Part shown: one piece after another, positions 984 through 57,244 of the stretch
Layout: the number at the start of each line of letters is the position of its first letter
Numbering within the stretch: position 1 is the first letter of the stretch
NCBI GenBank assembly: GCA_951406725.2
Contig: OX597826.1
Location: forward strand, 22,940,001-23,004,000
Direction: 5' to 3'
Origin: Octopus vulgaris
Taxonomy: Eukaryota
DNA: 64,000 nucleotides
Program-made: the position numbers and the translations under genes
Notes under the pieces: generated by a model
What the model was told of the DNA's origin: nothing
Seen by the model: only the letters and a program-made list of their open reading frames with translations
Database searches by the model: none

Positions 984-1028
984 TGAACCCGAAGATTGCA
1001 GAATTCAATGCATGAAAGTACTAGTTCA
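984..1028 (+). ncRNA. Minimal type I hammerhead motif (CCGAAGA core variant) in the PLE 3' region
   Basis: Stem I TGAAC/GTTCA, core CCGAAGA, stem II TGCA/TGCA, GAAA, palindromic stem III AGTACT, cleavage triplet CUA. Lies downstream of the GIY-YIG ORF. Confidence 0.65.
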
Positions 1029-1263
1029 ATCAGAATGAACATTTAACATTCTACTATTTCATTTTATTTTATTCAATTATAATATATTATCTTATAATAT
1101 ATCATTATAAGATTGTAAATAAAACGTGAAAATCAGACAAGGTTGGAATTCCTTTTATTAATATATTCTTCTATACACAATCACACACACCCATATATAT
1201 ATATATCTATATATATATATATATATATATATATATATATATATATATATATATATGTATGTA

Positions 1264-1694
1264 TATTGTTATATTTCGGAATGGTCATTTTGCCAGTTTA
1301 GTCAATAAAAACACACGCACTATATATTTGGTGTTATTTTGCTTCAGTATTATTTATTTTTTACATTAATCTTAATCTTATTTCGGCCAGAGTTCTTTCG
1401 TCACACTCCTGTGACCGCATCAGTGGTCCTTTGTTTTCTTCTTTCTTATTTGTGTCTCTCCTTACTAACCGTCAGCCTGATGCGGTCACAGGAGTGTGAC
1501 GAAAGAACTCTGGCCGAAATAAGATTAAGATTAATGTAAAAAATAAATAACACTGAAGCAAAATAACACCAAATATATAGTGCGTGTGTTTTTATTGGCT
1601 AAACTGGCAAAATGACCATTCCGAAATATAACAATATCTGTTTCAACACACGACTTCACATAAAAAATCTTGCACAACAAATATTTAAACGTAC
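1264..1694. mobile_element. Fold-back PLE pLTR-type element in (TA)n
   Basis: Inverted arms ~1264-1423 and 1477-1637. HHR-like motif in the arms; ATG at 1612 starts [27 protein letters not shown]. (TA)n on both sides. Confidence 0.75.
1385..1428 (-). ncRNA. Hammerhead-like motif with non-canonical core CUGAUGCG
   Basis: Minus strand: GACCA CTGATGCG GTCAC AGGAGT GTGAC GAAA GAAC TC TGGCC. Confidence 0.5.
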
Positions 1695-1778
1695 TATACA
1701 TATATATATATATATATATATATATATATATATATATATATATATATATATATATATATATATATATATATATATGTA

Positions 1779-2076
1779 TGGAGGCGCAATGTCCCAGTTG
1801 TTAGGCCAGCGGACCCGTGGTCGTAGGATCGTGGTTTCGATTCCCAGACCGGGCGATGTGATTGTTTATTGACACCTAAAAGCTCCACGAGGCTCCGGCG
1901 GGGGTAGTGCTCCCTGCTGTACTCTTTTACCACTCTTTCTCCCACTCTTTCTTCTGTTGGCCTACTCGCTTAGCCAGCGGAGTGGCGTCATTCGAAGGCT
2001 AAAACAATGCGAACGCATTGTGACCAGCGATGTGTTACAACATCTGTTGGTTTGGTCGGTCACGTGATCACGTGAT
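1779..2076 (+). mobile_element. tRNA-derived SINE, family A
   Basis: A box TGTCCCAGTTG (TGGCCCAGTGG in other copies), B box GTTTCGATTCC, CACGTGAT tail. Copies at 13208, 25911 and 28782. Confidence 0.85.
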
Positions 2077-54700: not shown

Positions 54701-54832
54701 ATACAAATGTAGCTATAAAAATTATAAAATTATGAAATTTATAAATTGTATACTTTAGAATTATAGAAGACCACAGGTATATTTAGTTAAAGAAGGGAAT
54801 TAAAAAATTAATAATAGTGGAAGTGCTAAGTT

Positions 54833-55372
54833 CTATTTGAATCTAGAAAAGGTGAACGGTAGCCTATGAATACAAAAGAAGTTTTTCTCATTAATGTTGT
54901 TAATAATTTGCCGACCCGCTTTAATAATGAAGAAAATTTCATTAATACATAGAGAGCATTTTTTATTTTTTCCATTATACACAGGTGCTGAAGTTAGTAT
55001 TTTCCAGTTTAATCTAAAATCTAAGTTCTTACTTTTAAGTTCCCAAATGTATGCACTTAGCCCTGTAGAGTACATTCTATTTTTATTCCTAAAAGTATAT
55101 CTGTGATAATTCCATCTTTGTTTTATGCTATTCATAGTTGCCCCGATATACACCCTACTACTCAATTGTGTATCTACAGTGCATTGGTAAACTACCTCCT
55201 TCCTGAGGCATTGATTACCAAATACACATTTATTTTTATTTCTGCAATTACAAAGATTAACAGAATGAGGAAATCTAAGATTGGACACCACCCCTATACT
55301 ACTATTCACATTATAAGTGTTACAATTGTTATCATCATCCAAACCCAAAATCAACGAATGAGTTAATTTCAC
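54833..55372 (-). CDS. PLE GIY-YIG endonuclease C-terminal fragment (5'-truncated)
   Basis: CNCRNKNKCVFGNQCLRKEVVYQCTV...VYIGAT...KQRWNYHRYTF...LSAYIWELK...WKIL...CSLCINE. Confidence 0.9.
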   Translation of the reverse strand: MKLTHSLILGLDDDNNCNTYNVNSSIGVVSNLRFPHSVNLCNCRNKNKCVFGNQCLRKEVVYQCTVDTQLSSRVYIGATMNSIKQRWNYHRYTFRNKNRMYSTGLSAYIWELKSKNLDFRLNWKILTSAPVYNGKNKKCSLCINEIFFIIKAGRQIINNINEKNFFCIHRLPFTFSRFK

Positions 55373-57128
55373 ATTATCGGCTATATTCCTATCACTAGTA
55401 CTAGTATTGGTAGTAGTAGTATGATCTATTACATTTATATTATCTCTGACAGGTATGGTGCACTCATTATTAGTAAGGAGGTTGTTCCCATCTTAATTTG
55501 TATCTTATGCTATTCACTGATAAACCTTTTTCATTTTTTTCATTTTCTCATTTACATGCATTTTGCTTTATAATTATTACCAGCCTCATATATTTAGTTT
55601 ATATCTATAGTCCTCTGGATCTGTACTTTAAACTATCCTTCCATACATATTTACTTTCAACAATATAACATATATATTCACTTTATTTATTTTTATTTAT
55701 TTTCCATTTTATTGTAATATTATCAATCTTTGCATCTAGTCTTCTATTTATTTATTTATTTGCCTATTTAAGTGTAGATGTTTACATACATATCAAGTCA
55801 TCTAATTTGTTACCTATTTATTTTTACTTATTTACTTATACTGGTGTAGTTTTATACATACATATCTATCATTTATTTTTATTTAATTTTAATAATATAT
55901 GAATACATATATACTAGTTTGTACTTATAATTATGTGTATAACCGTATTTATTCCTTCGTATTTATTCCTTCTTATTTATTTTATCTCTTTTCATCTTAA
56001 GTCTTTATAATATAAAATTTATTTAAAATTTCTGTGATGTTCTCATAAGCGTTTACATTAATACTTCCCCTTCTATTCTTTAATGCCTAAACTGGTATAT
56101 TATGGCACTATATTTATTAAGTTAATAAGTGACTTATTTATAATATTTAAATTAATATATATTTTATATTTTATATTTTATAATTTAGCGTACTTAAAAT
56201 CATAACAAACTTACGATAAACCTAACAACCGTATGTTTACTCTGCAACAAACCGGTGTTATAAATTTTAAGTTACCCATGAAATAATTATCTGAATTAGT
56301 AACATACTGATATTTAAAAATATATTTATATCTATATTAAATATTTTATAGAATGCATGGATGGTTCTTTTTTTGTTATTGAGGCTCAGTTATAATTTTG
56401 AAGGACTAAATGTTAGCATAGTTGCTTCCTTTTTGTTTATCTAAGTGCTAGTTGTTGCTTGTGATTATGTATGTGTATAAGTGTATGTATATACATATAA
56501 CTATGTGTGTATGTGCGATTGATCTGTAGATGCGTGTGTGAATATTGGCGTTCCCTGACTAACCAACCGTATAATTTTCTTTTGTGATTTAAATTTCAAA
56601 CCAATAGCCAATCGAATTAATCTAAATTTTCTTTACCTAGTGGTCAGCATTTCTTAACTCATAGTTATTTCGATCTTGAAAGGATGGACTTGGTGCTAAC
56701 TTAACTGTATCTATTTTTATTATTTTTTTATTATTATTATTATTATTATTATTATTATTATTATTATTATTATTATTATTATTATTATTAATAGTAATTT
56801 TTATTAACTTTTATAGCTTTAGAATTTTATGAACTGTACCACGGATTTAATTATTATTTTTCATCTCCATATGTGTTAGCCTTTTTTTTTATAAAAAAAA
56901 CTATTAGCCAAATATGTATAATATCGGTACTTATTAATATTAATATATACACTGTTATATATTTTGTTTTATTTTGTTCTGTTTACCTTCCTTTTTGTAC
57001 AAATGTGTATTATATTATATAAGTGTAGCATTATGATGTATAAGTTTTTATATTTTACATTTTTATATTTTTATATTTATATGTATATGATTATATAATA
57101 TTTTTCACTATTATAACAAATTTAATTT

Positions 57129-57244
57129 AATTCTCTGAAGAGGCCGTGGGGCATCCTTGTTAATGCCTCATTTATACCTGCCTTTTTGGATTATAGGTTA
57201 AATGAGGTATGACTGTCCTCACTGCCGAAACAGCTGTCAGTTTT
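57129..57244 (+). ncRNA. Type I hammerhead with long stem II (mirror copy 52568-52682, minus strand)
   Basis: CT CTGAAGA GGC..GTGGGG...TGCCTCATTTA...TAAATGAGGTA...CCTCAC.GCC GAAA CAGCTG TC AG. Confidence 0.75.

Follow-up and report, generated by a model that had tools for sequence, protein, structure and literature searches.

The window analysed here is a stretch of 64,000 nucleotides from Octopus vulgaris (GenBank assembly GCA_951406725.2, contig OX597826.1, positions 22,940,001 to 23,004,000 of the forward strand), in which 11 types of hammerhead ribozyme motif, families A to K, belong mostly to truncated ends of Penelope-like elements (PLEs) together with a few parasites; the members of this set are new, while its kinds are known. 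The central finding is that the two inverted arms of an insertion end at two different sites of the element, one arm at an inner 3' end site (X) and the other at a tail-end site (T). In searches of the one 2.8-Gb assembly, 70 of 71 classifiable two-armed insertions of families K, D, C and F pair X with T (19 in K, 30 in D, 8 in C and 13 in F), one has X at both ends and none has T at both. This strict asymmetry, which an earlier first-pass annotation of the window had overlooked, is the most informative feature of these insertions: being near-exceptionless over four unrelated families, and joined to arms that come from one source and are not nested, it constrains the mechanism of integration and argues against self-priming.

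Ends, targets and orientation of the insertions

The ends were classed with queries that held neither X nor the tail, in 40 K loci drawn from 150 listed endonuclease matches, 39 of 50 D loci (overlapping duplicates removed; 20 of the 50 had been chosen as close pairs with their ends unseen), 24 of 30 C loci and 25 of 30 F loci (duplicates removed). These 128 loci (fetched genomic loci carry L-numbers below; all other positions are window coordinates) hold 88 two-armed pairs, 17 of which have an end at neither X nor T. On manual reading, the sole X+X case consists of a young single arm that is nested next to an older T+X element, and of the odd loci L151, L217, L219, L235 and L264 are X+T, L245 and L246 stop a few bases before T, and several others are spurious blocks or run into N. 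Families B and J and a first D sample, examined with queries that contained the tail and therefore tail-selected, concur with X+T.

The spacing of X and T is family-specific, at about 175 nt in K, 70 in D, 100 in C and 57 in F. Both sites lie downstream of the predicted cleavage site, through which the copies read, and both carry TA-like letters. In tandem copies T is an internal site as well, as the sequence continues through it to the following unit. Single-armed K and F copies are mostly X-ended.

When an end was scored for (TA)5 within 25 nt beyond X or T, 196 of 207 ends in K, D, C and F were TA-flanked (58 of 60 in K, 66 of 70 in D), compared with 9.4% of random positions in the window and its neighbours and 4.8% in the K loci; the targeting of (TA)n proposed in the first-pass annotation is therefore borne out. 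Its further claim that the 3' ends point outward holds as well: in a reading by eye of the first 100 listed D matches, 25 pairs within 7 kb point outward and 2 inward. Insertion into (TA)n and inverted arms have already been described for Hydra and Naiad PLEs (PMC8557442). Most single-armed K copies adjoin TA at their 5' junctions as well, which favours existing tracts over de novo synthesis of TA by the reverse transcriptase (RT). A 50-kb haplotig contig, probably an unmerged haplotype, is 99.1% identical to window positions 1-27250 in one block, and no empty allele or site was seen in that alignment, which leaves room for TA-tract expansion.

The window is itself a local hotspot, with 144 TA tracts per 64 kb as opposed to 73 in the K loci, and with 5 D motifs as opposed to 0.065 expected from a 44-mer a few bases offset from the one counted genome-wide; the only explanation offered is target density together with how the window was selected. 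General clustering of PLE families was not seen, as D occurs once in 0.93 Mb of the loci of other families, where 0.95 is expected on the same basis.

Other repeats also meet TA tracts. Fragments of long interspersed elements (LINEs) at 49769-50831, 58018-60531 and 10450-13187 are abruptly ended by (TA)n on one or both sides, which suggests deletions or rearrangements there. PLE ends are nested in a TA tract next to other PLE ends at L118 (K and older K-like), L272 (D-like and E) and L289 (A-like and E). A 39-bp inverted pair (46175-46213 and 48580-48618), one copy of which is inside the J insertion, faces long TA tracts, and an imperfect inverted repeat of about 205 bp at 9770-9974, with CTGATGA near its centre, adjoins another. 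A repeat annotation of O. vulgaris reports recently active Penelope-like families, and the words hammerhead and ribozyme are absent from its available text (PMC13282606).

Arm structure and a model of integration

The two arms of one insertion are far more alike than arms of different insertions, with a divergence within insertions and a median divergence between them of 0.23% and 1.29% in K (lower within in 18 of 19), 0.74% and 2.80% in D (14 of 14), and 0.64% and 1.13% in J (10 of 12), which argues that both arms were copied from RNA of one source. Nor are the arms nested. In counts based on alignment blocks, tandem units disregarded, it is the X arm that extends farther in the 5' direction in 28 of 62 pairs (11 of 19 in K, 11 of 30 in D, 6 of 13 in F), and in five insertions (L135, L151 and L023 of K, L176 of D, L227 of F) the T arm is wholly inside the tail, so that neither can have been copied from the other arm.

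In K, D, C, F and J the inversion junctions are not the same at different loci, which indicates that the fold-back is made at insertion. The upstream segments of tandem K copies mostly extend beyond the cleavage site with no pile-up there, and copies that read through the predicted site point to a template of uncleaved or re-ligated (circular) RNA, as has been proposed before (PMC11167929).

These features are, we judge, rather probably the outcome of a double-strand cut within (TA)n, followed by twin priming in which a dimeric enzyme uses RNA of one source at X and at T, and then by head-to-head joining. The GIY-YIG domain would cut both strands within (TA)n, and a dimer of the protein carrying RT and endonuclease (EN), on one RNA or on two RNAs from one locus, would start one cDNA at X and one at T with the help of 1-5 nt of TA microhomology. 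The T-primed cDNA would read through the X region, and the two cDNA 3' ends would then be joined head to head via microhomology-mediated end joining, while extension from one broken end only would leave a single-armed copy. The Poseidon PLE has been shown in vitro to cut and extend both strands from two internal start sites that bound its tail, and a dimer has been predicted for it (PMC11167929). Priming at both ends of a TA break, which had been suggested in the first-pass annotation, may thus be retained as the best model, given X+T pairing and non-nested arms of one source.

Several points weigh against this reading. Poseidon showed in vitro neither a difference in start sites between top and bottom strands nor homology at the start sites (PMC11167929), so that something more, for instance one RNA per dimer, is required for strict pairing. 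Inside (TA)n no target-site duplication can be recognised, and the double-strand cut is to that extent an inference. Arms of like source would look the same whether they came from a single RNA or from two transcribed at one locus, and gene conversion between them at a later time could heighten their likeness. At 15 of 22 K and 10 of 15 D junctions there is an overlap of 1-53 nt, and some D junctions also hold stuttered short inserts, as microhomology-mediated joining would produce, but the overlaps were counted without a random control, and BLAST may over-extend alignments in AT-rich DNA. Both outer ends of L251, a complex C locus, are T ends, one arm each of L180 and L192 ends at neither site, and about a quarter of the classed K ends (17 of 60) are single-armed.

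The alternative that survives best is sequential priming in two steps, of an L1-like kind, in which a single RT starts from one nick at T or X and halts, and a later nick serves to prime a second round at the remaining site of that RNA, with neither a dimer nor a simultaneous break. It accounts equally well for X+T pairing, same-source arms and tail-only T arms, and also for single-armed copies; we nevertheless hold it unlikely, for the overlap of most arms runs to hundreds or thousands of bases, which differs from L1 twin priming and would need strand displacement or a second RNA, and the scheme gives no reason why one site is never reused. Self-priming, in which an antisense RNA or a first cDNA snaps back, is copied into a hairpin and is integrated (PMC3846280), would account for arm identity, for palindromic junctions and for the 144 exact CTAG-centred palindromes of D. 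It requires nested arms, however, and it is against this that the pairs with a longer-5' X arm and the tail only in the T arm count; with the five insertions whose arms do not overlap, self-priming is disfavoured for long copies and its chances overall are slim. Least probable of all, and only marginally behind self-priming, is a separate class of fold-back elements, mostly non-coding, defined by a hammerhead and moving as units, as the first-pass annotation had it, which would suit the tandem monomers of C and F without long open reading frames (ORFs), the short G and I and the recurring D palindrome, but is refuted for at least six of the 11 types (A, B, D, E, J and K), which are truncated ends of ORF-bearing PLEs, and is opposed by junctions that differ among loci. 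The PLE origin proposed in the same annotation is upheld by those ORF links.

Twin priming at a double-strand break may belong to a broader scheme, to which we give a little less than an even chance, in which PLE integration would be obligately asymmetric twin priming by a dimer on one RNA at X and T, retrozymes and a short interspersed element (SINE) with a tRNA-like head would hijack it via the same two-site module, and the palindromic stem may pair or fold the RNA and not only cut it. If this is true, inverted arms, the one-sided tail and mini fold-backs all stem from one step.

The mini fold-backs are a feature of family D. The first 30 D matches stem from 23 insertions, and in 10 of these (judged by eye) an arm begins at r3189-3207, shortly upstream of the core, which is at r3212, rather than at the cleavage site, r3241. 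In the twin-priming model, these minis would be copies that halt close upstream of the hammerhead at a defined 5' end of the RNA, likely set by a putative internal promoter of the pseudo-long terminal repeat (pLTR), as is known for Drosophila Penelope (PMC2377424). A G at the 5' end that might derive from a cap is only a hint, the loci having been selected by a query holding that base. The perfect palindrome centred on CTAG recurs exactly, as counted above, and the other junction forms differ from it; as the junctions vary, descent of all D minis from one fixed master hairpin was rejected. Contigs of four putative RNA runs cover 30 of 30 bins of the D monomer, far deeper on its last 110 nt, and from these, in which level, strand and ends are unreadable, nothing is concluded. 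A second truncation hotspot may lie about 130-150 nt upstream of the J hammerhead core, where many J arms (L087-L116, tail-selected) begin.

Families and hammerhead motifs of the window

The 21 type I hammerhead motifs of the first-pass annotation, in 11 types, were all found again in place by family-specific patterns, which amounts to a guided fit rather than a blind scan. They go back to about 13 independent insertion events once paired arms, a tandem array and a segmental duplicate are allowed for (A, B, the C array plus its duplicate, three D insertions, E, F, G, H, I, J and K). Two blind descriptor scans of the window gave 7 and 8 matches, one of the 8, at 7781, being outside the earlier list, where 20 and 30 block-wise dinucleotide shuffles gave means of 0.45 and 0.17; the hammerhead signal is thus far above chance, and most variants evade simple descriptors. 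An Rfam scan of the window showed no hammerhead family among the best 150 of 402 matches. The annotation had placed the motifs mostly in fold-backs inside (TA)n, and this stands for the two-armed, TA-bounded insertions of B, D, F, J and K; A, E, G and H have one arm each, and in I, where 9 of 38 family ends are TA-flanked, the claim mostly fails.

Among the first five pairs of stem I, four or five are kept in 17 of the 21 copies and three in both K copies and in I, while the B copy at 1477, whose 5' strand is missing at the fold-back junction, keeps none; the stems differ from type to type with pairing of at least 3/5 in 20 of 21 copies, much as had been claimed. Stem III, which had been described as tiny and mostly palindromic, is indeed self-complementary or almost so, and in A, C, D, E/K, F and J it is predicted to form self-duplexes, at -4.8 to -23.5 kcal/mol; the same prediction gave none for B, G, H and I. 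Folding of monomers predicts a hammerhead shape for some motifs only, with z-scores that are weak except in I and K. The motifs themselves are ordinary, and their self-cleavage is predicted.

The canonical core CUGANGA/GAAA/UH is present in 16 of the 21 window copies, and variants occur in A (U4C), in both B copies (A9C), in E (C3G) and in I; in the D hammerhead an A-A pair closes a 2-bp stem II. Position 3 is C in 19 of 19 E copies compared (family core CCGAAGA) and G in the window copy, position 9 is C in 40 of 40 B motifs matched by pattern, and 13 of 16 family I motifs have U3-A8 where the window copy has C3 with A8; several window copies, including those of E, H and I, look damaged, those of E and I by comparison with their families.

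Families K, D, J and E are, on motif evidence, 5'-truncated PLEs of the Hydra clade. The two-armed K insertion (52380..57610) is in (TA)n with its X end at 52380, its T end at 57610 and hammerheads, found with the family-specific pattern, at 52676 (-) and 57135 (+). Its left arm, on the - strand, comprises the end of the ORF plus a 2.3-kb 3' untranslated region (UTR) and ends at X. The ORF remnant (54833..55492, - strand), which is 5'-truncated, encodes a CxCX5C linker and a GIY-YIG endonuclease, and has at least 150 genomic matches, at least 57 of those listed being identical across 135 aa. Complete K copies elsewhere in the genome have a single ORF of 955-960 aa, in which the RT precedes a C-terminal GIY-YIG EN, with RWR, DKT, CxCX5C, CxxC and CxH (IRWR/SDKT, CNCRNKNKC, CSLC and CIH). 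A Pfam search with the K protein gave no match, so that the clade call rests on motifs.

Family D is present as a short fold-back in (TA)n (9444..9679; T end 9444, X end 9679) with hammerhead cores at 9581 (-) and 9613 (+) and a junction 14-17 nt upstream of them, as a two-armed insertion in (TA)n (26426..28088; T 26426, X 28088; hammerheads 26563 (-) and 28022 (+)), and as a single arm on the - strand (50876..51797; T end 50876 in (TA)n; hammerhead 51013). Its monomer is 3350 nt long with an ORF of 727 aa elsewhere in the genome, where the D 44-mer has 2853 exact matches; the K and D RTs are 36% identical. D has LRWK/SDKT and, in the single ORF read, CNFKNESSC (second Cys changed), CRLC and CRH. 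The two-armed J insertion (47600..49181, in (TA)n; X 47600, T 49181; hammerheads 47711 (-) and 49001 (+)) belongs to a family that joins a partial ORF and EN, with motifs IRWA/ADKT. Family E (13607..15500, - strand; upstream limit approximate) is a single-armed 3' UTR and pLTR of a Hydra subfamily near K, with X at 13607 in (TA)n and a hammerhead at 13976-13859 (-); another repeat interrupts it near 14270-14650. It joins an EN of Hydra type and is known from this EN alone, and the RWK-like motif, with DKT in place of DKG, is found in K, D and J. The CxCX5C linker, CxxC and CxH are present in K, and in D with the second linker Cys changed, and the EN there has no CCHH. Long asparagine-rich inserts in K (L021/L022) and B (L084/L086) proteins resemble those of Adineta Penelope (PMC3846280).

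Two more families, putatively of another EN+ clade such as Penelope/Poseidon, Neptune or Nematis, adjoin PLE-like RT-EN remnants, which were judged by eye; tblastn with a Hydra protein gave no match to the A or B ORFs. Family A (1..1192, + strand) is a PLE 3' end, in which a broken RT and C-terminal GIY-YIG ORF with frameshifts and stops, whose start lies in the upstream neighbour L025, is followed by the pLTR; its hammerhead (core 989, H17 1023, + strand) has stem III AGUACU. Family B (1266..1694) is a two-armed insertion in (TA)n with its left arm at X (1266), its right arm at T (1694) and hammerheads found with the family-specific pattern at 1423-1390 (-) and 1477-1510 (+). It is the pLTR of an ORF-bearing PLE, with EN upstream in L079 and the start of the ORF beyond the tail in L084, L086 and L072; a B remnant at 28270..28570, within a duplicated block, has its hammerhead core deleted.

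Families C and F appear by structure to be retrozyme-like, in that they consist of short non-coding tandem monomers with one type I hammerhead each and a longest Met-initiated ORF of 65 aa; no ORF-bearing partner of either was found among the fetched loci listed. Family C begins at 3848..4503 with an inverted arm and the first unit of a tandem array of about 490-nt non-coding monomers (core 4063), continues at 6180..7032 (+ strand; cores 6251 and 6738), where it ends at T, and has a copy in the duplicated block at 29180..29835 (core 29395); it has 179 exact 35-mer matches genome-wide. The F insertion (15516..16046), with a non-coding monomer of about 431 nt, is two-armed in (TA)n with T on the left and X on the right; its hammerhead is at 15838-15773 (- strand) with stem III ACCUGCGCAGGU, and there are 52 exact 38-mer matches genome-wide.

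Family G (17140..17417, + strand), which has a tRNA-like head, an (AAT)n spacer, a hammerhead (core 17293) and a 3' module, is putatively a tRNA-headed hammerhead SINE. The head was judged by eye in the window, L232 and L302, and ARAGORN found no tRNA gene in the window. Within 1.36 Mb of fetched loci it has 18 matches, 11 after filtering, and copies elsewhere have stem III ACGU and form unequal fold-backs at two loci (L032 and L301). Family H (24938..24998, + strand; core 24946) is an isolated hammerhead-like motif that, in a genome search with up to one mismatch, matched only itself and its haplotig copy. Family I (45828..46115, right limit approximate; core 45931) is an older short fold-back with a one-sided tail.

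The remaining repeats include a segmental duplication of 1266-5469 and 28270-30801 at 96-99%, in which 3833-5469 is duplicated at 29165-30801 at 99%; a LINE (2128-3768) in a TA tract after a SINE is found only in the first duplicate copy. A 1.7-kb element at 4504-6179 (partial duplicate 29836-30801) sits in the C array between 15-bp direct repeats and has one gag-like open frame of 320 aa with a degenerate CCHC knuckle and no Pfam match; we take it to be possibly an ORF1-only, L1/Tx1-like element. At 33500-41800 there are four to five tandem units of about 1.8 kb with a mariner helix-turn-helix fragment (Pfam HTH_48 matched in the one mariner-bearing unit examined) and a 102-bp doublet. An open frame of 430 aa at 60889-62181, with weak Myb/SANT-like and CCCH finger matches below Pfam cut-offs, is probably ORF1 of a LINE whose ORF2 comes next.

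Comparison with known systems

Hammerheads in pLTRs, (TA)n targeting, inverted arms and the one-sided tail have all been published, and the way in which PLEs build inverted, tailed insertions has been stated as open (PMC8557442). In the literature searched, which left outside most subscription papers and all supplements (those of PMC8557442 and PMC11167929 may bear on it), the X+T pairing rule was not found, and among titles and the beginnings of abstracts no paper linking twin priming to the PLE mechanism was found. What is new here, namely the X+T rule, the non-nested arms of one source and the PLE signature on retrozymes, is a useful sharpening of an open mechanism.

The closest known system is the Hydra clade of PLEs with a C-terminal endonuclease (Craig et al., 2021, PMC8557442), with which the octopus families share RWK-like, DKT, CxCX5C, CxxC and CxH motifs, hammerheads, the (TA)n target, an inverted 5'-truncated arm and a tail that is often one-sided. 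They differ in size, K being 5.6 kb with an ORF of 955-960 aa and a 2.3-kb 3' UTR where families of the clade are generally below 3 kb, and in their tails of 57-175 nt as opposed to 30-40; X+T pairing, counted here, is described in the available text only as 'often'. The intact and very young K ORFs offer Hydra-clade enzymes for study.

In the Poseidon PLE of Anolis (Frangieh et al., 2024, PMC11167929), two internal RT starts likewise bound the tail, the target is AT-rich, both strands are cut and extended, and hammerhead cleavage is dispensable; different sites at the two ends of one insertion are not reported in the available text. The X+T rule yields a direct prediction for this existing in vitro system.

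The hammerheads agree with the minimal PLE hammerheads of Cervera and de la Pena (2014, PMC4209133), being type I with a short palindromic stem III and an extra base between 9 and 10.1, with a U3-A8 variant (family I), with several families per genome and with opposite-strand pairs 100-700 bp apart. They differ from these as described in the available text in that B has C9 and D has A-A in place of G10.1-C11.1.

Families C and F resemble animal retrozymes of the non-long-terminal-repeat kind (PMC7229834; bioRxiv 10.64898/2026.07.22.740005) in that their tandem monomers are non-coding, measure 430-490 nt and bear one type I hammerhead, and differ in carrying the PLE signature of X/T ends, inverted arms and a TA target; the words 'inverted' and 'microsatellite' are absent from the available text of PMC7229834. 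Family G resembles the schistosome SINEs Sm-alpha and Sj-alpha (PMC6765202, PMC2770079) in its putative tRNA-like head plus hammerhead, and differs in that its copies show PLE-type unequal fold-backs at two loci. As for the retrozymes, the preprint argues from distribution and phylogeny (bioRxiv 10.64898/2026.07.22.740005), and the PLE signature on the tandem units of C and F adds structural support for the movement of animal retrozymes by the enzymes of PLEs, the sister group of telomerase.

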